A DNA stretch of 64,000 nt from Deltaproteobacteria bacterium (GCA_900299195.1 OMIX01000089.1:2892-66891); one strand, 5' to 3'; counted from the first letter of the stretch, positions 40,005 to 56,715 are shown. Numbers and translations: made by a program. The notes: generated by a model not told the origin, from the sequence alone.

Positions 40005-40580
40005 TCAACAACCCAATCCAAACTGCACAGCCCCCGTACAAAAAGCCGGCCGAACCGGTTGGAGTGAGGGTTGTGTCAAAACATCTCTCTGAACTAATTG
40101 CCAACCCGCTTGTTGAAGTTTTTGAGCACGATCTGAGGTAATTTCAAATCCTCTCGCAACTAAATTAGAGCCGACTCGACTCACAATTCCGCCTAACTGT
40201 GAAATAAACCAAGGTCGGGTTTCAGGATAATTAGCATACTGACCATTCGACATAGTCGAATACATCATAATGAAATTAATTAAATTGTCAGAACACTGCC
40301 CTCCCAAAGAAGGGATTACGGGAAGTCCTCCCCCCATTCCAGCTTGAGGGTTGCTCATCATCATCATGACTGGAGCTAAGCTATTAGCGCCCGATTTTCC
40401 GCATTCTTCTTTTGTTTGTTGGGCTAAAGTAAACATAGTTTGAAGTTGGGCCTGATCGGTAGGGTTATTCAATTTAAGCCCAGGCGGCTGCGGTGGTGGA
40501 GCCGAACTGTCTCCGCATCCAATCATGAAAAGCAGTAAACTTTGAGAAAAGAGAATCAAAATGTGTTTCATAACTAACAC
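40005..40580 (-). CDS. Lipoprotein, unknown function
   Basis: Lipobox MIGC; Met/Gly/Gln-rich mature sequence. Confidence 0.5.
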   Translation of the reverse strand: MLVMKHILILFSQSLLLFMIGCGDSSAPPPQPPGLKLNNPTDQAQLQTMFTLAQQTKEECGKSGANSLAPVMMMMSNPQAGMGGGLPVIPSLGGQCSDNLINFIMMYSTMSNGQYANYPETRPWFISQLGGIVSRVGSNLVARGFEITSDRAQKLQQAGWQLVQRDVLTQPSLQPVRPAFCTGAVQFGLGC

Positions 40581-44450: not shown

Positions 44451-44974
44451 GGAAAGCTCTATTTTTAGATCGAGACGGTATTTTTAATGAATTGGTCTTG
44501 AGAGATGGGACCTACCATTCACCAAGAAACTGGAATGAAGTAACCCATTACAACCTTGAGGGATTAGGACACTTTAAATCTTTAGGTTTTCAGTTGATCA
44601 TGGTCACCAATCAACCCGATATCGAAAGAAAAATCATAGATTCTACTTTTATCGACGAATTGCACCGTTATTACCAAGAACGCTACAGTTTAGATAAAAT
44701 CTATGTCTGCCCCTTTTCTTCAAATGACCACCCTTTAAAAAAACCCAATCCAGGAATGTTTTTCTTAGCTCAAAAAGAATTCCAGTTAGATCTATCTCAC
44801 TGTTTTATTTTGGGAGACACCGAAAAGGATACGTTAGCAGCCCGTCGATGTGGCATGAAAAGTATTTTATGGAACCGAAATTACAATCAAGGTGTTAAGG
44901 CTGACTTTACCGTGGATTCAATCAGTTCTTTACAACAGCTTTTTTGCCGTCTCATCGACCCCGCTTCCATTTAA
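44444..44974 (+). CDS. HAD-IIIA phosphatase, GmhB-like but lacking the Zn-binding Cys cluster
   Basis: LFLDRDG (DxD nucleophile), VTNQPDI, KKPNPGMF, GDTEKD; 7-nt overlap with the SDR gene. Confidence 0.65.
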   Translation: MLGKALFLDRDGIFNELVLRDGTYHSPRNWNEVTHYNLEGLGHFKSLGFQLIMVTNQPDIERKIIDSTFIDELHRYYQERYSLDKIYVCPFSSNDHPLKKPNPGMFFLAQKEFQLDLSHCFILGDTEKDTLAARRCGMKSILWNRNYNQGVKADFTVDSISSLQQLFCRLIDPASI

Positions 44975-45731
44975 ACGAGTCGCCTTTAAGCAGAATTTTA
45001 AAAGTTCCAGGTTCTAAACTGAGATTGTGTTCAGGATTCAAACATCCTACCCAATCCAGATAGGGTTCTTGGGTTTGGGGCTGGGTGTAATCGACTAAGA
45101 CTTCGGTCTTAAGTTGGCTACAGCCAAGCGACCTTATCCCTCCCCCTATCGCTGAGGAGTCTCCAAGACCCGCCGCTAGACTATTTTTGCCGTGAATGAG
45201 TCTTAAAATTAAAGAATCTTTGGCTAGAGCCATGACCTTAAGTTGGGTTTGGGATTGAGAAAAAAGAAAACTTTCTAAGCTCAGACTTTGAAGTGAAATC
45301 CCTCTCTTTAAAAAGATTTCCTTAATGGCTAACCAATCAGCGGTTTCGAGAGAAAGTGGATTTGTTTTGACCTCTTTAATTCTTATTCCGCTGGCCAACA
45401 TATCTTTTAACGCTGAAATCGAATCCGGCCCAAAAGAACTTAATATTAATTGGTCTATATCTTTGATTTTCTGTTTTTTTAGATAAAGCAAAAGACTCCC
45501 GGCTGCCTTTCCTGCATTAATTAAAAAAACCTGTCCGTCTGGCATTTTGACCAATTGAGCCTGAGCGGCATGTGTTTGGGAGTCGGATTTGATTAAGGTC
45601 CATTCAACAAAAGGTCTTTTATCGATCAAGAAGGTAAAGGCTAACAGGTATAAAACAATCCATCCCAAAGCGATGGAGCCCCATTTCAAAAAAAATCTGG
45701 CCCTCTTTTGTTCAGAATGAATTTCTGACAC
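44952..45731 (-). CDS. Membrane-anchored protein, possibly a degenerate ComEC-type MBL domain
   Basis: N-terminal TM. VFLINAGKAAG..IDQLILSSFGPDS resembles an MBL domain but the HxHxDH metal motif is absent. Confidence 0.35.
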   Translation of the reverse strand: MSEIHSEQKRARFFLKWGSIALGWIVLYLLAFTFLIDKRPFVEWTLIKSDSQTHAAQAQLVKMPDGQVFLINAGKAAGSLLLYLKKQKIKDIDQLILSSFGPDSISALKDMLASGIRIKEVKTNPLSLETADWLAIKEIFLKRGISLQSLSLESFLFSQSQTQLKVMALAKDSLILRLIHGKNSLAAGLGDSSAIGGGIRSLGCSQLKTEVLVDYTQPQTQEPYLDWVGCLNPEHNLSLEPGTFKILLKGDSFKWKRGR

Positions 45732-46876: not shown

Positions 46877-48751
46877 ATGTGTGGAATCATCGGTTATATA
46901 GGTTTTCAAGATCCTAAAGGGATTCTTTTGGATGGACTTAAACGGTTGGAATACCGAGGATACGATTCTGCCGGAATTGCTATTCTTGAGGGAAATAAAA
47001 CTCTCTTATTCCGTTCTGAAGGTAGAATACAAAAATTGGAAAGTAAGCTGACTCAAGAGCACTTTCAAGGGCATTTGGGAATAGGGCATACTCGTTGGGC
47101 TACTCATGGAGCCCCTACTGAAAACAATGCTCACCCCCATCAAGCTGGCCCCATCACTTTAGTCCACAATGGAATATTGGAAAACTACTTAGACCACAAA
47201 CTTAATCTACAAAAAAACAAAGTTTCTTTCTCGAGTGATACCGACACTGAAGTGATTGCCCACCTCTTTCACCAAGAAATTCAATCGGGAATATCTCTCA
47301 AAGATGCGACCTTCAAAATTTTGCCTACCCTGAAGGGATCTTATGCTTTTGTTGTTATTCATGAAAATGAGCCTGATGTAGTAATAGGCACTGCTCAAGG
47401 AGCTCCGCTAATTATTGGACTAGGAGAGAAAGAGACTTTTCTAGCTTCTGACGTGCAAGCTATTTTGCATCGAACCAATAAAGTCATTTATCTCGAAGAG
47501 GGTCAAGTCGCCGTTTGCAAAAATAATCAAGTCGAGCTTTTTTCTCGAGAGGGTAAAAAACTCGTCCCTCAAATAAAAACTCTACAATGGTCAGCGGAAC
47601 AAATGGAAAAAGCTGGCTATCGACACTACATGCTCAAGGAAATCCACGAGCAATCCCAGGCCATTGCCAACACCATCTCGGGCCACATGGAATCCGTAAG
47701 TGGCACTATTCAAATTCCTGAGATCCTGAAAATCAAAGACAAGCTTAAGACCCTTAACAGAATCTCTATTGTTGCCTGTGGAACTGCAAGACATGCAGGA
47801 CTTGTAGGAAAATATTATTTTGAAAAACTTTCAAGAATCTCAACCGACGTCGATTTTGGATCCGAGTTTAGATATCGACAACCCATCTTAGATAAAAACT
47901 CGTTAACTATTTTAATTTCTCAATCAGGCGAAACAGCAGACACTTTGGCTGGACTTAGAGAGTCAAAATCTCAAGGAGTAGCCACCTTATCCATCTGTAA
48001 TGTGAGAGAAAGTTCTCTGGCTCGAGAATCGGATTTGGTTCTTTACACCAATGCAGGCCCCGAAATTGGAGTAGCTTCCACGAAAGCCTTCACCACGCAA
48101 TTAACCATGCTTTACATGTTGGCGGTTCAGCTAGGAGAAATTCGAGGCACCATTACCAAGGAATATGCCAAAGAATTAGCAACCGATTTGATGCATCTCC
48201 CCCACCTGGTAGACCAAACTTTAAGGCTCGAAAATAAAGTTGAAGAGATTGCACAAAGTTTTCAAGACCATCCGTTTTTCTTCTACATGGGGAGAGATTG
48301 CTTGTACCCCATTGCTCTAGAAGGAGCGCTAAAACTTAAAGAGATCAGTTACGCACATGCAGAGGGGTATCCAGCTGGCGAATTAAAACATGGACCTATT
48401 GCTTTGATTGATCGGCAAGCTGCTGTGATTGTTCTTGCGCCTCGAAATAAAGCGCCGGAAACCCAAACGGATCTGAATGATTTTGATCACAATATTCTGT
48501 TTGATAAAATTTTAAGTAATCTTCAACAAGTAAAAGCTCGAGGGGGACAAATTTTGACAGTGGGAAGTGAAGAAGACTCTCTTTTTCCGAAAGAATCTAA
48601 ATATTTTATAGGTCTACCGAAATGTTCTTGGGCACTTAATCCTATTTTGACCACCCTGCCACTTCAGTTGTTGGCTTATCACATTGCCTCTCTAAGAGGA
48701 ACTGACGTCGATAAACCCAGAAACCTAGCCAAAAGTGTTACGGTAGAATAA
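46877..48751 (+). CDS. glmS: Glutamine--fructose-6-phosphate aminotransferase
   Basis: MCGIIGY N-terminal nucleophile, two SIS domains (SQSGETADT), C-terminus NLAKSVTVE. Confidence 0.95.
   Translation: MCGIIGYIGFQDPKGILLDGLKRLEYRGYDSAGIAILEGNKTLLFRSEGRIQKLESKLTQEHFQGHLGIGHTRWATHGAPTENNAHPHQAGPITLVHNGILENYLDHKLNLQKNKVSFSSDTDTEVIAHLFHQEIQSGISLKDATFKILPTLKGSYAFVVIHENEPDVVIGTAQGAPLIIGLGEKETFLASDVQAILHRTNKVIYLEEGQVAVCKNNQVELFSREGKKLVPQIKTLQWSAEQMEKAGYRHYMLKEIHEQSQAIANTISGHMESVSGTIQIPEILKIKDKLKTLNRISIVACGTARHAGLVGKYYFEKLSRISTDVDFGSEFRYRQPILDKNSLTILISQSGETADTLAGLRESKSQGVATLSICNVRESSLARESDLVLYTNAGPEIGVASTKAFTTQLTMLYMLAVQLGEIRGTITKEYAKELATDLMHLPHLVDQTLRLENKVEEIAQSFQDHPFFFYMGRDCLYPIALEGALKLKEISYAHAEGYPAGELKHGPIALIDRQAAVIVLAPRNKAPETQTDLNDFDHNILFDKILSNLQQVKARGGQILTVGSEEDSLFPKESKYFIGLPKCSWALNPILTTLPLQLLAYHIASLRGTDVDKPRNLAKSVTVE
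48717..48751 (+). repeat. Direct repeat copy 1 (last 11 codons plus stop of glmS)
   Basis: CCAGAAACCTAGCCAAAAGTGTTACGGTAGAATAA; 34/35 identical to 49966-50000. Confidence 0.95.
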
Positions 48752-48800
48752 GAGGCTTTGCTTTTATTTAGCGTTCAGCTTTTCCTGAATATACTAAAAG

Positions 48801-49922
48801 TTACTCATAACCCAGACTTTTTAGTTTTAAAGTAACCCTCTGGATAAACCAGTTTCCCAACTTAATCCCTGGTTCTTCAATTAAAACATGGATGAAACTT
48901 GCCACACTGAAAGACACTGCTACCAACAAAATAAAATGAACCAAACTTCCAAAGTTAGACCCAGTTAAGTACTGGGTAAGACCTATTTTTTGAAACAAAT
49001 AGATAATGGCAAAATGAAATAAATATATTCCATAGCTCTGCCTGCCTAGTTTCACAGTTACAAAATTTACGAAAATAACGACTTGATGTAGGGACAGGAA
49101 CATTACGAATATTGAGATAGCTATAGCATCAACAACCCATTGAGGCATAAACAATGGTGATCCAAAGGGTAAGTAAGACCGGAAAACAGTGATTATAAAG
49201 ATGAATCCACCAATCCAGTAAAATCTAACCTTTCTGATCCCGTTTTTTAAAAAACAAAAAGTGATAATTCCGATTAGAAATACCGGAAACTGCGCCAGGA
49301 AATTTAAATAACAAAAATCTCTAACCAGATATTGCTGATTAACAGGATAATTAAATAAACCCATGATGAAAGGCTCACTCATCTTAAGTATCCATAGACT
49401 TGAGAAGAACATTAAAATTGCAAACACGGGAGACCTAACTTCTGATAACAAAAAGGGCACAAGCAAATAGAAAAAAGCTTCATTTGCTATCGACCATCCT
49501 CCAGGTACCAACGAGTTTATTGTTAAAGGATTAAATCCGTGCAAAAATGTTGCGGTAAGAAAAATGTCCCATCTATTTACTCCCATAGGAGCTGAATATC
49601 TAGGTTTCAATCCATTCAAAATAAGAAAAATCACTATCGCTAGATAAAACAGCGGGGCAATCCTAAAAACCCTTTTTAGATAAAAGTTTAATTTGGGGAA
49701 TCTTTCACTAGCCATTTTTGAATACCAGGACATGCAAATAGCAATAGCAGATACAATGAAAAACAATTGGACTCCTAGCATTCCTTTTTTCATTATTCGA
49801 TTTAATAATTCATTTGTGGGAACAGCATATTGACTAGAATGGACAAGAACGACAGCCAAAATGGCTAATCCCTTAAGAGCATCAAGATAGGGATACTTTT
49901 TTATATCCATTGAATAACCCAT
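48801..49922 (-). CDS. Acyltransferase family 3 integral membrane O-acyltransferase
   Basis: N-terminal LDALKGLAILAVVLVHS motif, ~10 TM helices. Visibly more AT-rich than the flanking genes. Confidence 0.8.
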   Translation of the reverse strand: MGYSMDIKKYPYLDALKGLAILAVVLVHSSQYAVPTNELLNRIMKKGMLGVQLFFIVSAIAICMSWYSKMASERFPKLNFYLKRVFRIAPLFYLAIVIFLILNGLKPRYSAPMGVNRWDIFLTATFLHGFNPLTINSLVPGGWSIANEAFFYLLVPFLLSEVRSPVFAILMFFSSLWILKMSEPFIMGLFNYPVNQQYLVRDFCYLNFLAQFPVFLIGIITFCFLKNGIRKVRFYWIGGFIFIITVFRSYLPFGSPLFMPQWVVDAIAISIFVMFLSLHQVVIFVNFVTVKLGRQSYGIYLFHFAIIYLFQKIGLTQYLTGSNFGSLVHFILLVAVSFSVASFIHVLIEEPGIKLGNWFIQRVTLKLKSLGYE

Positions 49923-49965
49923 TCTTACTTAGAGTTGCTGTAGCTAAAGTAGATAGGAAGTAGCG

Positions 49966-50000
49966 CCAGAAACCTAGCCAAAAGTGTTACGGTGGAATAA
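49966..50000 (+). repeat. Direct repeat copy 2 (orphan copy of the glmS 3' end)
   Basis: CCAGAAACCTAGCCAAAAGTGTTACGGTGGAATAA. The single difference (GTA to GTG) is synonymous in the glmS frame. Ends 2 nt from the wzt-like stop codon. Confidence 0.95.
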
Positions 50001-50002
50001 CT

Positions 50003-50800
50003 TTAAGCGACTTGAGGGAGGTCTTTTTCCTTGCTGTAAAGATCTAACATCTCACTTGCAGATCCCAAGGCAATTACTTTGCCTTGCTTCATGTAAACTC
50101 CTCGATTACAAAGCTTGTTAACGGCTTTTTCATCGTGACTCACAAACAAAATGGTACGACCGCTATTAGCTACAGAACGCATTTTATTTATGCATTTGTT
50201 TTGAAAGGCTGTATCTCCAACTGCTAACACTTCATCTACAAACAAAATAGGTTGATCCAAATGAGCTGCGACAGAAAACGCCAATCGAACGTACATCCCT
50301 GAGGAGTAATGCTTAATTGGAGTATCGATAAATTTTTCGACTTCAGAAAAATCTACAATGGCATCAAACTTAGCTTGAATTTCTCTTCTTCTCATTCCTA
50401 AGATCGCACCATTGAGAAAAATATTTTCTCTTCCTGAAAGCTCAGCATGAAATCCGGTTCCCACTTCCAACAAAGCCGAAGATTTTCCCCTGATGACAGC
50501 TCTACCCTCAGTAGGAAAAGTGATTCGAGAGAGAATTTTTAAAAGGGTCGATTTGCCACATCCGTTGCGACCAATCAATCCTACAATCTCACCCGGCTGC
50601 ACAGAGAAAGAGACATCTTTTAACGCCCAAATATAATCGTTGGAATTTTCGTTTTGCTTATTCCCTTTTAACATTCCTATCGGTCCATTCTCTCTAAGAT
50701 TTTTAGAAAACCTATTAAGAACTTCTCTGATTGAAGTCGTACCGATGACACCCAGGCGATACTGTTTGGAAATATTTTGAACTTCAATTATTGGCTTCAT
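50003..50800 (-). CDS. Polysaccharide/O-antigen export ABC transporter ATP-binding protein (Wzt/TagH-like)
   Basis: Walker A GRNGCGKST, signature YSSGMYVRL, Walker B ILFVDEVLAVGD. Confidence 0.85.
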   Translation of the reverse strand: MKPIIEVQNISKQYRLGVIGTTSIREVLNRFSKNLRENGPIGMLKGNKQNENSNDYIWALKDVSFSVQPGEIVGLIGRNGCGKSTLLKILSRITFPTEGRAVIRGKSSALLEVGTGFHAELSGRENIFLNGAILGMRRREIQAKFDAIVDFSEVEKFIDTPIKHYSSGMYVRLAFSVAAHLDQPILFVDEVLAVGDTAFQNKCINKMRSVANSGRTILFVSHDEKAVNKLCNRGVYMKQGKVIALGSASEMLDLYSKEKDLPQVA

Positions 50801-50803
50801 AAA

Positions 50804-51691
50804 TTAAATAATATCAACAAAGTCTCTTTCTACTCGGTTAAACATCATCAACCCCAACACCACAGAAACCATAGAAACGATTAAGGATACGAATAAATAT
50901 GACACTTCCAAGGCAGAGGTCCCTAAAAAAACATGACGAAACGTATCTACCACTGCAATGAGGGGGTTAAAAACCGTTAAATAATAGAAACGTTCTGGAA
51001 TTTTACTTACAGGATAAACCACTGGGGTCGCATAAAACCATAACTGAATAAAAAACCCTAAGACATGAGTTAGGTCTTTATATTTCACCGTAATAGCTGC
51101 AAACATCAGCCCTAAACCTAAACACATCGCAGAAGTAATGAGGAGAAGCAAGGGAGTCAAAGCCACGATCTTAATGAGATCGGGATGAATGATATTTCCT
51201 GCCGCAGTAAATAATTTATAAAAAATAAGCAACCCCATAAAAACTAGGAGTTGAGTAAAAAAAATCAATGATTTTGAAATCACCACAGAAAGAGGCATTA
51301 CAAGTCTAGGAAAGTAAACCTTTTGAAAAATATAAGCATTGGCAATTAACACATCCGCAGTTTGTTGAAAGGCAACTGAGAAATAGCCCCAAATGACTAA
51401 CCCGCTAAAATAAAAAAGAAGGTGAGGAATTTCATCCGTTGACATCCCTCCTAGTTTTCCAAAAACGGCAGTTAAAACTCCTGACATCATAATAGGTTGT
51501 ACGATGTACCAAATGGGTCCAAGAATGGTTTGGCGATAACGAGCTATAAACTCTTTTTGTACAAAGAGAGTAATCAAATCTCTAAATTGCCACAACTCTA
51601 CCCAATCGATTCTGAACCACTGATAATTGGCGTCAATTACCGTAGTTGAATTGAGACGGTCCGAGTAGACCTTTTTCAAATATGCGCGCAT
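50804..51691 (-). CDS. ABC-2 type polysaccharide export permease (Wzm/TagG-like)
   Basis: Six TM helices, ABC-2 layout, 3 nt upstream of the ATPase gene. Confidence 0.8.
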   Translation of the reverse strand: MRAYLKKVYSDRLNSTTVIDANYQWFRIDWVELWQFRDLITLFVQKEFIARYRQTILGPIWYIVQPIMMSGVLTAVFGKLGGMSTDEIPHLLFYFSGLVIWGYFSVAFQQTADVLIANAYIFQKVYFPRLVMPLSVVISKSLIFFTQLLVFMGLLIFYKLFTAAGNIIHPDLIKIVALTPLLLLITSAMCLGLGLMFAAITVKYKDLTHVLGFFIQLWFYATPVVYPVSKIPERFYYLTVFNPLIAVVDTFRHVFLGTSALEVSYLFVSLIVSMVSVVLGLMMFNRVERDFVDII

Positions 51692-51802
51692 GAGCCAAGT
51701 TTGTTGTTATTAGGAAATTAAGAAGATTCATTTATTATCCTACATTTAGCGAGATTGTATAAGCTAAAATTTGATTTGCAGCGAGGCAACGTGCCTAACA
51801 CA

Positions 51803-54034
51803 CTAAGGCCACAAACGCGCCATGGCCTGAGAAGCCCCAGCTATTCCGCTGAGAACAAGTTGGATGCCATCTAAAATAATGCGGTTGGCCGCAGAGTTCC
51901 CTTGAGTAAAACTGACTGTTTTTAGATGGTTTCCATCATTAATAAAATTACCATTAGATTGATACCTTTTGATCAACATTTGATTGGATGCAGTTCCAAC
52001 TATCAAAATCTGACCAGCTGAATCAACTTCAATATCTTTGGCTTCTGTACTTATAGTATCGGTGATGAGACCTGAGCTTCCAAACGTAGTGTCCAAACCC
52101 AGGTTGGTATTCAGCCTGATCACCGCTAGTTGGGAACCGTTAGTTCCAGCGAGTAAAATTTTTCCAGAAGCATTAAAGGCGATTGGATTGACTGTACCTT
52201 GACCAAATTGAGACAGAGTCAAAGTAGGTGGCAAATTAGCCGGATCAAATCGGGTCACTGACATTTTTGAATCAGAAGAAGTGCCCCCTATCACAATATT
52301 TCCAGAGCCGTCCTTCTTAATGCGGGTGGCCAAAGCAGAAAAGGTAGGGTTCACCAGGTTATTAGGATCCATGGCCCCGGTGACTTTCGGCACAAAGATA
52401 AAATTAAATTTGTTCCCTACCAGAACCAAGTTTCCAACATTAGTAGTTTCAATTCCAATGAGCTCGTCATCTAATGCCATCAGATCTCGGGTTTGTACTG
52501 GAAAATCAGAATTGAGTACCAGATCATTACCCATCAAATTAAGTTTTCCATATAACCAATCCTTCCCCGAACTTCCTCCAAAATCGGCCCAGCCAGCAAA
52601 ATAAACATCGGACCCCTCAATCACCATGGAGTTAATACGCGAGGAGTTACCTATGGTATCACTCACATTGAACTCAGACTTAACGGCACCCGTATCTCTG
52701 TCTACCAAAGCTAAATAGCCCCTCTCAACTGAAGAAACGATTTTGTATCCAGCAATCAAATAGCCCTCAGAAATTTTAATGATCGACAAGATTTCTCCAG
52801 GTGAAAGAGCCAACTTGCCATCACTACTAAAAGCAGTGTCCAACACTAAGTGAGTGACGTTAAGGGTAGCCGTAGCGTTAGTTAATCCAGTCGAGCTTCC
52901 AGTGAGAGTCACGCTAGTTACTGCGATAGAGGTGACTTTAAAGAACAGTGCCGCTGAAGGCGACGCACTGCTGATCCCCACCGAAGTTCTAATGTTACTT
53001 CCACTTTGACAATCACTTAAGCTTGTAAAAAACTGACCGTTCCCGCCTGAAGATAAGCTCACGGTCTTATTGTTCTCACTAAACGCATTCCCCAACCCAT
53101 CTCTCGATGTGATAGTGAACGAGCCACTACACACACCGACGTTTAAGGTGGCGGGTGCGGAATCAAAAGTTAACGCGGTAGCCGTTCGGGTCACAGCGAT
53201 AGTGGCTGTTCCATTTGAAACTATCGGATCACTTACTGCCAAAGAAGAAGTGATGACTCTCGAATTGGTATTTATGCTTGTGACTTTAAAAGAAAGATTA
53301 CCCGTTGTGGTATTATTCTCAGGAATGCTGACTGAGGTCGTTTCATTAACACAATCATTCCCAGTATAAAATTTGGCTTCGAAATTAACTCCTAAGCTAA
53401 TCTGGGTTTCAGTTCCTCGGGTAAATGGGTTACCCAGTCCATCGATACTTGTCACCGTAAGTCCACTCGCACAAACACCAACATTAGCCGAATTGGGATT
53501 CCCATTAAACCTAAGGGCCGTAACTACCCTCTTAACCTCCGAGCGGCCTATCTCGCTCGAAAATCCACGACTGCTAGCAGAAAAAGCGACAGGATTGCTG
53601 GTAGCTTGATTGTAATCGTAATTAGTTGGCTTATAGTAAATCAGTTTTCGACTTTCCCCAGCGTTCATGGGAATTGAAGTCATACTCGCGCCAGAACAAT
53701 TGGAAGTAGTATAAAAATTCCCCCCTTGCCCCGTGGCTTCGAGATTCACAACTATAGAACTTTTAAGTCGAACTTCAATAGAGCTTCCTCGATTCACTGC
53801 AGTTGCCACGCTCACATCCACGGGCTCACAGAGGGTCAGTCCGAGTTCCGCTTTTCTTGATTTGATAAGAATACGACTGGGTAACAATGCCGGATCCTCT
53901 GAAAAATTGAGTGCCTGCTTTTGGGGAGCTTTTTCCTCATCAAAAGACATGAAACCAAACTGACAAGAGGTTAAGACAAAGGTAAGAAGAAGAGCTAAAA
54001 GACGATTTAGGAATGTTAAAAACGTGCTTTTCAT
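51803..54034 (-). CDS. Large surface lipoprotein: tandem Ig-like repeats plus delta-60-repeat beta-propeller region
   Basis: Lipobox LTSC. Two ~100-aa repeats share NVGVC..(L/F)T(V/I)TS(I/R)DGLGN(P/A)F..FKVTSI. C-terminal LDT(A/T)F(S/G)S(D/S)G-type repeats. Confidence 0.6.
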   Translation of the reverse strand: MKSTFLTFLNRLLALLLTFVLTSCQFGFMSFDEEKAPQKQALNFSEDPALLPSRILIKSRKAELGLTLCEPVDVSVATAVNRGSSIEVRLKSSIVVNLEATGQGGNFYTTSNCSGASMTSIPMNAGESRKLIYYKPTNYDYNQATSNPVAFSASSRGFSSEIGRSEVKRVVTALRFNGNPNSANVGVCASGLTVTSIDGLGNPFTRGTETQISLGVNFEAKFYTGNDCVNETTSVSIPENNTTTGNLSFKVTSINTNSRVITSSLAVSDPIVSNGTATIAVTRTATALTFDSAPATLNVGVCSGSFTITSRDGLGNAFSENNKTVSLSSGGNGQFFTSLSDCQSGSNIRTSVGISSASPSAALFFKVTSIAVTSVTLTGSSTGLTNATATLNVTHLVLDTAFSSDGKLALSPGEILSIIKISEGYLIAGYKIVSSVERGYLALVDRDTGAVKSEFNVSDTIGNSSRINSMVIEGSDVYFAGWADFGGSSGKDWLYGKLNLMGNDLVLNSDFPVQTRDLMALDDELIGIETTNVGNLVLVGNKFNFIFVPKVTGAMDPNNLVNPTFSALATRIKKDGSGNIVIGGTSSDSKMSVTRFDPANLPPTLTLSQFGQGTVNPIAFNASGKILLAGTNGSQLAVIRLNTNLGLDTTFGSSGLITDTISTEAKDIEVDSAGQILIVGTASNQMLIKRYQSNGNFINDGNHLKTVSFTQGNSAANRIILDGIQLVLSGIAGASQAMARLWP

Positions 54035-54405: not shown

Positions 54406-55182
54406 CTAAAAATTGACACCAAAATCGACAAGAACTAAAGGTTTAAAACCGGTTCCTTTCAAATTCAAACTAGAAAATTCTGGATCACCTAGATACTGAA
54501 ATCCAGCCGCCAACCCCACAACCACTCCAATGTCCAATTTGAATCGGTAGCCCCCGGTCAATAATACCTGTAACTCGGTGGACTGTTGCTCGATACTCCC
54601 AGTCGAACTTGACATAAAAGCAAGTCCACCTGCGACCATAATCCAAAGTTCTTTAAAAAATCCTTTGGGATAGAAATTGCCCGTAAGAAGAATAGAGATC
54701 GAATTCAAAGATTTGGTTGAAGAATTAATATTCAAATAACTTGGCATCACACCCAGAGCAAATTCAGGCTCAACAATTCTTTGAAAGTGCAGGGAAGGAT
54801 ACAAAAATGATAAGCCAACAGTACCACTCAAAGTCAAAAGATGGAAAGGCTCTTTGGTAATCGGTAAACTACTAGTGACGATTTCGGGTTCCACCAATAT
54901 CGCAGGTTTTTTAATAGGCGTGCTGGCGATGACTTTATCTCCACGAGCAATTGATTCACTGCCCTCTTTAAGTCTTAAAATGCAAAAATTCTCTTTGACT
55001 CGAATGACATTTCCACAAGCAAACTCTTTTCCATCTTTAACAACACACAACTTGTCATTAAGTTGCCATCTTCGGGTCACATCGTGAGAAACAGCGACCA
55101 TTCGACTATCACTGCCCACTTTGATAACTTCAGCCCCCCACACAACTCCAGAGACTAATGAAATAAGAAAAATGAGTTTCAT
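54406..55182 (-). CDS. Outer-membrane protein (N-terminal soluble domain plus small beta-barrel)
   Basis: Signal peptide, alternating hydrophobic C-terminal half ending in the terminal Phe (FGVNF) typical of OMPs. Confidence 0.5.
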   Translation of the reverse strand: MKLIFLISLVSGVVWGAEVIKVGSDSRMVAVSHDVTRRWQLNDKLCVVKDGKEFACGNVIRVKENFCILRLKEGSESIARGDKVIASTPIKKPAILVEPEIVTSSLPITKEPFHLLTLSGTVGLSFLYPSLHFQRIVEPEFALGVMPSYLNINSSTKSLNSISILLTGNFYPKGFFKELWIMVAGGLAFMSSSTGSIEQQSTELQVLLTGGYRFKLDIGVVVGLAAGFQYLGDPEFSSLNLKGTGFKPLVLVDFGVNF

Positions 55183-55766: not shown

Positions 55767-56609
55767 TTAATTGAGACTTTCTGAGAACTGTTCCACTTTT
55801 TGAGAAACTTCTGCGATTCGCTGACACCCTACCATTAAGTTTTCCAAATGCTTAAGCGGCCAGGCATTAGTAGCATCTGATAAAGCTTGAGAAGGATTGG
55901 GATGAGTTTCAGCAAAAAAACCGGTGACACCCACCGCGGCCCCGGCTCTCGCCAAATGGGGAATAGCCTCTCGTAGCCCAGCCGTAGATTCTCCAAGTCC
56001 CCCAGGAAGTTGAACCGAGTGAGTAATATCAAGTATCAGTTCCGCACCCAATTTTTCCATCTCAGAAAAGCCTGAGAAATCTACTACCAATCGTTGGTAA
56101 CCAAAAGAAACGCCTCGCTCGGTTATCCAAAACCCCTGGGCTTTAAATTCCTCTAATTTATTTAAAATTTGTTTAACGTTGGCAGGACTTAAAAACTGCC
56201 CTTTCTTTACATTGACACATTTGCCAGTCTTGCTGGCAGCCTCTAGGAGGTCGGTTTGTCGACATAGAAAAGCTGGGATCTGCAAAACGTCCGCTACTTC
56301 CGCTACTGGTTTGGCCTGATGGGTCTCATGAATATCGGTAACAATGGGAAGTCCAAATTCTTTTTTTACCCAAGATAATTCTTTAAGCCCCTCTTCAATC
56401 CCCAAACCTCGATAGCTTTTGTGAGAGGTTCGGTTGGCTTTATCAAAAGACGCTTTAAAAACTACCGGAATTTTATGTTTTTCAGAGATTGTCTTCACGC
56501 TCTCAGCAATGGTCCTTAAAACTTCTCGACTCTCGATAACGCAAGGTCCAACGAACCAGAAGGGATTCCTTTGACCTCCCTCTTGTAGCTTATTTTTGAA
56601 GTCAAACAT
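55767..56609 (-). CDS. kdsA: 3-deoxy-8-phosphooctulonate (KDO-8-P) synthase
   Basis: GPCVIES, FKASFDKANRTSHKSYRG, VTDIHE. The ATG at 56609 is preferred to the 16-codon extension. Confidence 0.9.
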   Translation of the reverse strand: MFDFKNKLQEGGQRNPFWFVGPCVIESREVLRTIAESVKTISEKHKIPVVFKASFDKANRTSHKSYRGLGIEEGLKELSWVKKEFGLPIVTDIHETHQAKPVAEVADVLQIPAFLCRQTDLLEAASKTGKCVNVKKGQFLSPANVKQILNKLEEFKAQGFWITERGVSFGYQRLVVDFSGFSEMEKLGAELILDITHSVQLPGGLGESTAGLREAIPHLARAGAAVGVTGFFAETHPNPSQALSDATNAWPLKHLENLMVGCQRIAEVSQKVEQFSESLN

Positions 56610-56715
56610 GAAGGTTAACCTACCTTGCCATTCCCGTTCTATCAAGCCTCTAAGCAATCACAGATAAATTAGCTCGTTTTTGCAGTTTTTTTAACTTTAG
56701 GAAGAGCCATTTTTA

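Follow-up and report, generated by a model that had tools for sequence, protein, structure and literature searches.

The DNA analysed here, referred to as the window, is a 64,000-nt stretch from a bacterium labelled Deltaproteobacteria (GCA_900299195.1 OMIX01000089.1:2892-66891), in which a gene for a membrane acyltransferase sits between the 3' ends of glmS and a gene of a glycan exporter. glmS (46877–48751, + strand) is intact and encodes a glutamine-fructose-6-phosphate aminotransferase of 624 residues with Pfam GATase_6/7 and two SIS domains; converging on it is the acyltransferase gene (48801–49922, − strand), which encodes an intact protein of 373 residues consisting only of an acyltransferase-3 (AT3) domain (PF01757, Acyl_transf_3). 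On the same strand as the latter lie a wzt-like gene for an ABC transporter ATPase of 265 residues (50003–50800, − strand; PF00005, ABC_tran) and a wzm-like gene for an ABC-2 permease of 295 residues (50804–51691, − strand; PF01061, ABC2_membrane). The acyltransferase gene is framed by a non-coding flank of 49 nt between the glmS stop codon and its own (48752–48800), missing from every relative with an empty site, and by another of 43 nt upstream of its start codon (49923–49965); outside these lie two copies of a 35-nt sequence, the first of which forms the working 3' end and stop codon of glmS (48717–48751, + strand) and the second of which is non-coding (49966–50000, + strand). Comparison with related genomes shows that the acyltransferase gene is a real, derived insertion, specific to this species.

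The two copies (CCAGAAACCTAGCCAAAAGTGTTACGGTAGAATAA at 48717–48751 and ...GGTGGAATAA at 49966–50000) are identical at 34 of 35 bases, start 1249 nt apart and share a longest exact match of 28 nt. With up to three mismatches allowed, the repeat matches these two sites alone in the window, 100 dinucleotide-preserving shuffles of the window produce no chance occurrence of it, and the pair is the sole sizeable near-exact direct repeat within the whole stretch. Read in the glmS frame, the repeat comprises two nucleotides of a Pro codon, ten codons (R-N-L-A-K-S-V-T-V-E) and TAA, so that copy 1 gives GlmS the C-terminus usual for its family (...PRNLAKSVTVE followed by the stop). The single mismatch, with A at 48745 in copy 1, sets GTA against GTG, both of which encode Val and are thus synonymous. 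At the right, the repeat stops with the final base of TAA in glmS; from there the two sites diverge, into GAGG and CTTT, and the end of copy 2 lies 2 nt from the wzt stop codon (50003–50005). A preliminary description, made from the sequence alone, had reported a 34/35 duplication of the glmS end with one synonymous change, a second copy ending 2 nt from the convergent stop, and a single gene between the copies; re-matching, the shuffles and the mapped wzt stop agree with this account, 48801–49922 is the sole open reading frame (ORF) between the copies, and the extent given there, the last 11 codons plus stop, is correct to within one base.

A search with GlmS returned no match between ~100% and 83% identity, and then relatives at 76–83%, the range to which the GlmS proteins of syntenic relatives belong. 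Five related lineages were read: L003/L008, consisting of a metagenome-assembled genome (MAG) labelled Deltaproteobacteria at NCBI (isolate K_Offshore_120m_m2_196) and a JGI contig; L016; L017–L019; L020–L021; and L022 (GCA_002359565.1). All five share with the window the order 3-beta-HSD-type epimerase, GT2, GHMP kinase, SDR, HAD hydrolase, 259-residue ORF, epimerase (a gene not called in L017–L019) and glmS, followed by convergent wzt, wzm and a large DUF5122 gene. In each of them, glmS abuts wzt with only 1–6 nt between the stop codons (spacers T, A, A, AA and CTTATT) and there is no acyltransferase; each has a single glmS end per locus, and two are found in this species alone. The last 35 nt of glmS in every lineage align to both copies of the window and, since bases 5008–5042 of L003 do so, the duplicated target is defined precisely. 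These empty sites, in which glmS directly abuts wzt, bear out the earlier proposal that ~1.25 kb was inserted into the very end of glmS with regeneration of the gene end, and the opposite pattern, relatives that are all filled and carry diverged repeats, was seen in none of the five. The spacing is also of note in itself: because a junction of 1–6 nt in every related lineage (counterpart in the window, 50001–50002) leaves no room for terminators, the glmS and wzt transcripts probably overlap.

Across the lineages, these 35 nt vary at up to six positions, and glmS is close to saturated with changes at its third codon positions. Because copy 2, although non-coding, is still 34/35 identical to copy 1, the duplication is young and the insertion recent, as judged from these sequences. 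Copy 2 lies where all relatives have their only glmS end, next to wzt, and the variant position carries G both in copy 2 and in the nearest relative (L003/L008), and A in copy 1. This is suggestive of copy 2 being what is left, without coding function and at the ancestral place, of the original end of glmS, and of copy 1 being the incoming one, which probably came with the insert.

The filled arrangement is not an assembly artefact. Both copies, with the same A/G difference, are present in a 56-kb MEGAHIT (k119) contig of another ENA assembly (L001/L013/L023), which differs from the window by 33 single-nucleotide polymorphisms (SNPs) over 14.4 kb; another contig, assembled with SPAdes and 1331 nt long (L002), covers both copies and has exactly the sequence of window positions 48690–50020; and a Logan contig (L010) runs from inside the acyltransferase gene through copy 2 into wzt and wzm. 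Within the window itself, a stretch of 4.1 kb that includes the 3' part of glmS, the insert, wzt and wzm (48071–52185) has no SNP relative to L001, and the 7.5 kb to its left have 16, in ~10 separate events; the SNP-free stretch may be a recently shared or swept haplotype around the cassette, the SNPs being clumped and the significance of the pattern uncertain.

In two other assemblies, contigs end at the repeat. One of 51.8 kb (L014) stops at 48744, one base ahead of the A/G difference, and two (L011 and L012) both start with the first base of copy 2, at 49966; L002 and L011 have an overlap of 55 nt. These ends were compared with simulated de Bruijn graphs that included a hypothetical empty allele, in which glmS runs straight into copy 2 and wzt through an 82-nt junction (48690–48716 joined to 49966–50020; predicted sequence, glmS ...GTCGATAAAC followed by CCAGAAACC...GGTGGAATAACTTTAAGCG). 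Because the exact repeat is only 28 nt long, the filled allele taken by itself stays unbranched for every k from 29 upwards; in combination with the empty allele at K=55, it gives an out-branch at node 48690–48744 and an in-branch at node 49966–50020, which are the observed contig ends. This match suggests that at least one sample very probably holds reads from the empty allele, and a minor empty allele thus appears to co-exist in the population, either as the ancestral allele still segregating or as a product of deletion between the repeats. In every assembly of this species the filled allele predominates; exact protein look-ups for a same-species empty site (Wzt, epimerase and P0121) returned only assembled contigs that are filled or end at the repeat.

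The acyltransferase enzyme looks intact. PF01757 is matched over its full length (94 bits against a gathering cutoff of 31, with residues 11–344 covering model positions 2–324 of 326), and the sequence contains K17-X10-H28, F53-F54-I-V-S58-A59 (FFXISG-like, with A for G) and R84-V-F-R87. AT3 proteins are characterized by the motifs R/K-X10-H, in the first transmembrane helix, FFXISG and RXXR, the His and Arg of which OafA and Oac cannot do without (PMC7448272), and AT3-only members are believed both to pass the acyl group through the membrane and to attach it to the sugar (PMC9558356). Among 21 homologues H28, F54, S58, R84 and R87 are invariant, and position 17 is nearly so, being mostly R; the closest non-identical homologue is 53% identical. 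For the AT3 fold, with its ten transmembrane helices, a crude hydropathy scan gives six peaks at a strict threshold.

The neighbouring exporter gives this enzyme a probable context. The best NCBIfam matches of wzt are teichoic-acid and galactan export ATPases, all under the equivalog cut-offs, and those of wzm are galactan Wzm and KpsM, again under the cut-off; with an ABC-2 permease gene adjoining an ABC ATPase gene and polysaccharide exporters as best matches of both, the pair can be placed by sequence in the Wzm/Wzt-type family of glycan ABC exporters, an assignment that fixes the family and not the exact substrate. Because the acyltransferase gene shares the strand of wzm and wzt, lies 80 nt downstream of wzt, and is separated from it by a gap with no promoter-like or terminator-like match, read-through is plausible and would be its simplest route to expression, and the gene is probably co-transcribed with wzm-wzt; the orientation for read-through noted in the preliminary description thus stands. 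A candidate promoter for wzm-wzt-acyltransferase is a promoter-like site upstream of wzm (51734–51761, − strand; consensus match at 9 of 12 positions), although such sites are not in excess over shuffled sequence. The acyltransferase would then take an acyl group, most likely the acetyl of acetyl-CoA, through the inner membrane and attach it to the glycan exported by Wzm/Wzt, which would alter an epitope of the cell surface; O-acylation of this glycan is its likely role. Shine-Dalgarno complementarity is weak throughout the window (median duplex energy −2.4 kcal/mol over 37 genes), where some starts are possibly mis-assigned. As a sign of expression Shine-Dalgarno strength was set aside as uninformative, such motifs being weak across the genome.

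The base composition of the acyltransferase gene had been put forward as a further mark of foreign origin. Its guanine-plus-cytosine (GC) content of 34.7% agrees with the earlier estimate by hand, and that of glmS is 41.5%, close to the window mean of 41.7% and not the 45–50% estimated. The gene has the lowest GC of 52 ORFs (z = −3.6), mainly owing to a deficit at codon positions 1 and 2; 54% of the residues of its product are hydrophobic, and wzm, which encodes an equally hydrophobic protein, has 37.4% GC. At third codon positions GC amounts to 0.334, compared with 0.378 on average (z = −1.6), and the use of synonymous codons is ordinary (z = +0.4). In three contigs in which genes of homologues were checked, their GC lies 2 points under the surroundings in two cases and ~10 points in the third. 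Since the low GC falls on positions 1 and 2 of a gene for a hydrophobic protein with ordinary third-position GC and codon usage, composition says little about origin; third-position GC and codon usage were rejected as proof of foreign origin, being weak evidence where low GC stems from amino-acid composition. More generally, the case cautions that the low GC of a membrane-protein gene is poor evidence of such an origin.

As to how the insertion arose, we favour, as a probable though by no means firm reading, a recent and one-off, homology-guided capture of DNA in which a glmS 3' end stood beside the acyltransferase gene. In the ancestral state, glmS and wzt would have been convergent with just 1–6 nt between their stop codons; we infer that the incoming DNA carried the AT3 gene directly downstream of a glmS 3' end and recombined with resident glmS through 28–35 nt of conserved homology, and that its other end, 43 nt ahead of the acyltransferase start codon, was joined non-homologously to resident DNA at a point 35 nt short of the end of glmS (the outer edge of the right flank, 49965/49966). 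The fragment could have circularised and entered by one Campbell-type crossover within the 28–35 nt of homology. Alternatively, a break in the resident glmS end could have been repaired, its left end copying the foreign glmS and continuing into the downstream gene of the donor before being end-joined to the untouched right end. The product of either would be, from left to right, the resident sequence, copy 1 (the incoming glmS end), 49 nt, the acyltransferase gene, 43 nt, copy 2 (the relic) and wzt, and neither route would lose the 35 resident nt or damage glmS or wzt, the sole kind of outcome that selection would tolerate at so tight a junction. That the repeat ends at the last base of the stop codon fits homology limited to the glmS coding sequence on the incoming DNA; it is not decisive, because selection confines any viable event to a window of 3 nt.

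A number of observations weigh against this capture scenario or parts of it. No donor with glmS followed by a convergent acyltransferase gene was found, and the three closest homologues with readable context (L005–L007, 49–53% identical) are not beside glmS or wzt. A direct repeat of 35 nt that regenerates a gene end also has the look of an att core. The base at the GTA/GTG position differs among the more distant relatives, so that the polarity of the two copies is suggestive only. In a mosaic test for a 3' stretch of donor origin in glmS, sliding-window nucleotide and third-position identity to the five relatives gave saturated third positions, at ~0.45 identity, and a conserved C-terminus that is raised in every comparison, the relatives being too distant for such a stretch to stand out. 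Regarding the function of the insert, the acyltransferase gene has no clear Shine-Dalgarno sequence, though neither do most of its neighbours, and both its co-transcription and its glycan substrate are read from gene arrangement. Finally, the empty allele is in no contig directly and has contig ends as its basis; L002 and L011 have similar coverage (16.6 versus 15.7), from which the empty allele would be rare, and the assemblies may share raw reads and hence possibly do not represent independent samples.

The resemblance to an att core is the starting point of an alternative that we regard as unlikely though deserving of close scrutiny, namely a site-specific integrative cassette in the form of a 1.25-kb circle whose 35-nt att core mimics the glmS 3' end, inserted by a tyrosine or serine recombinase whose gene would lie at another place in the genome or on a helper element, and excisable by the same enzyme. 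Direct repeats at both borders of a compact insert with a single cargo gene, a rebuilt 3' end of the target, relatives with a single-copy empty site, and an apparent minor empty allele compatible with excision are all as this scenario would have it, and to this extent the integrative-element interpretation of the preliminary description holds. It is not matched by the rest of the evidence. No recombinase or transposase is found among the genes called on the glmS side (~10 kb) or the wzm side (~3.3 kb), in line with the earlier statement that none is present; the called neighbours are sugar-metabolism and export genes, and the insert itself is one gene. There are no terminal inverted repeats longer than 6 nt between the left and right flanks, no significant secondary structure was found in the left flank (48752–48800), and the joined non-coding ends of the insert fold no better than shuffles (z = 0.1 and 1.4); likewise, neither the junctions nor the 127 nt of non-coding sequence of a hypothetical circle show more structure than shuffled controls, and the latter have no arrangement of inverted binding sites. 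In the assembly graph, a circle junction is expected to produce nodes at 48717–48771 and 49939–49993, where L002 is unbroken, and no such branch was found. A search of 5.8 billion proteins yielded no acyltransferase above 53% identity outside this species, the sole near relative being an identical protein of the same species; the 35-mer (R at two positions) has no match in viral contigs and a single one in JGI metagenomes, in the empty-site relative L008; the best acyltransferase match in the phage collection is 32% identical, with nothing close to the cassette; and the plasmid collection gave a single match, to a Listeria chromosome record, over 49 nt of the conserved end of glmS. The search for the repeat in phages or plasmids that had been suggested earlier, here extended to the cassette and to viral contigs, thus gave nothing relevant, and in the collections searched the unit recurs neither in other genomes or sites nor as a circle. 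A recombinase acting in trans on a 35-nt att core is less likely because there is no second occurrence and no site structure, and the case for the cassette as a mobile element is weak and unproven, none of the hallmarks of such elements having been found. An integron gene cassette was rejected, since there is no attC site at the cassette border; attC core motifs (RYYYAAC ... GTTRRRY) occur inside the coding region only and not in the non-coding flanks. Quite improbable, in our estimation, is a related possibility in which a recombinase-less, single-gene unit enters and leaves the glmS 3' end via its 35-nt copy, with the help of a host or helper enzyme or by short-homology recombination; if true, it would constitute an on/off switch for surface-glycan acylation in a natural population and an unrecognised class of 'gene-end cassettes' at the conserved glmS terminus, following a route unrelated to Tn7.

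The repeat could instead be a target-site duplication, in which 1214 nt of foreign DNA (48752–49965) entered at a 35-nt staggered break made by an unknown transposase-like or repair process and filled in afterwards, the A/G difference arising later. An exact direct duplication does flank the insert, and the coincidence of its edge with the stop codon is not improbable, as selection passes only right edges in the 3 positions that spare both glmS and wzt; on the other side, the insert lacks terminal inverted repeats, an extra mutation is needed for the difference between the copies, and no known bacterial transposase produces duplications of 35 nt. This explanation is improbable, and a 35-nt staggered-cut duplication is the least likely among the recombination routes compared. 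An ancestral glmS-acyltransferase-wzt arrangement, from which the relatives lost the gene, would draw on the fact that deletion between the repeats yields exactly an empty site. A 34/35 non-coding relic, however, cannot be as old as synonymous-saturated lineages unless it is continually gene-converted, and the five empty sites have different spacers, as expected of long-standing empty junctions; the near-identity of the relic together with saturated third positions makes an ancestral filled state with repeated precise loss very unlikely. As for a mis-join that misplaced the cassette or created the second copy, an artefact already contemplated in the preliminary description, short-read metagenome assemblies do break at the repeat, but contigs of three assemblers (L001, L002 and L010) cross the junctions and the exact repeat of 28 nt is shorter than the k used, so that this can for practical purposes be dismissed.

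The insertion can be compared with several known systems. Tn7 inserts ~25 nt downstream of the glmS stop codon with a 5-nt duplication, and has structured ends with TnsB sites and the genes tnsABCD. The locus resembles it in having the glmS neighbourhood as target, but here the insertion point lies 35 nt inside the coding end, the duplication is of 35 nt and not 5, there is no transposase among the called genes, the insert matches neither the Tn7 terminal sequence (up to 3 mismatches) nor TnsB sites (up to 6 mismatches), and there is no intergenic room downstream of glmS in the clade; the analogy to attTn7 drawn in the preliminary description is consequently not upheld. Homology-facilitated illegitimate recombination, or one-ended repair combined with end joining, has been described in naturally transformable bacteria such as Acinetobacter, and shares with the capture proposed here one homologous junction (at the glmS end) and one that is not, the lack of element machinery and a one-off character; classical cases differ in that they usually delete recipient DNA, whereas here a 35-nt duplicate was left. 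Islands and prophages whose att core rebuilds the end of their target gene are known from tRNA and tmRNA genes and from the dusA-specific integrase family (PMC4482086). As in these, the insert is bordered by a short direct repeat, of which one copy supplies the end of the gene and the second is partial and non-functional, and relatives have empty sites; unlike them, the locus has no integrase, no arm-type or inverted sites and a single cargo in 1.25 kb, with no second occurrence in the collections searched. The integrase-less microcin H47 island of Escherichia coli was shown experimentally to excise by host RecA-independent recombination between short direct repeats (PMC3191183, PMC5426353), which offers a precedent for the possible origin of a minor empty allele at the present locus; that island is much larger, holds many genes and has repeats that are not a duplicated gene end, and in the present case excision would be one possible source of an empty allele that is itself read from contig ends. 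The enzyme itself is of a kind with the AT3-only glycan O-acetyltransferases Oac (Shigella phage Sf6), WbaK (Salmonella group E1) and Lag-1 (Legionella) (PMC9558356), with which it has in common a single PF01757 domain, a length of ~330–380 residues, the K/R-X10-H, FFXISG-like and RXXR motifs, an accessory distribution and a location beside surface-polysaccharide genes. It differs from them by its low identity (32% for the best phage match) and by its linkage to a Wzm/Wzt pathway in an uncultured lineage labelled Deltaproteobacteria by NCBI.

No new mechanism or gene family is involved, an AT3 accessory gene and an insertion flanked by a direct repeat of a gene end both being of known kinds; it is the anatomy of the insertion that is unusually clean, with a probable presence/absence polymorphism. 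Variation in glycan O-acylation is usually tied to pressure from phages or predators, and should the minor empty allele prove real, a probable O-acylation of the glycan would be variable in the population. The locus offers a clean and datable case of one surface-modifying gene being added to the polysaccharide export operon of an uncultured freshwater bacterium, leaving two tightly packed flanking genes undamaged, one of which (glmS) is essential, and the scar appears to record the event, with the incoming glmS end in place and the original end kept as a relic.

Several observations concern other parts of the window and further strains. A protein of the same species (P0244, MFM8313354.1) is encoded on a 4457-nt contig of an NCBI MAG labelled Deltaproteobacteria bacterium and represents another strain, with an epimerase 99.1% identical. 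The DUF5122/delta-60-repeat gene downstream of wzm (51803–54034, − strand) encodes 743 residues here, as opposed to 985–1088 where it is complete in relatives; several assemblies break or diverge at 52920–53209, 16 of the 33 strain SNPs fall at 53039–53204, and no DNA tandem repeats that could cause the breaks were found in the gene, which looks like a hypervariable surface-protein gene. Two ORFs of ~258–260 residues (44952–45731 and 54406–55182, both − strand) have no Pfam or NCBIfam match and keep their position in all related loci, and the polysaccharide/lipopolysaccharide neighbourhood of the window also contains a KdsA-like gene (55767–56657). Upstream of the locus, five SNPs relative to L001 fall within 26 nt (40553–40578) and are absent from L014, which otherwise shares ten L001 variants, a pattern suggestive of recombination in short tracts and of a population with at least three haplotypes.

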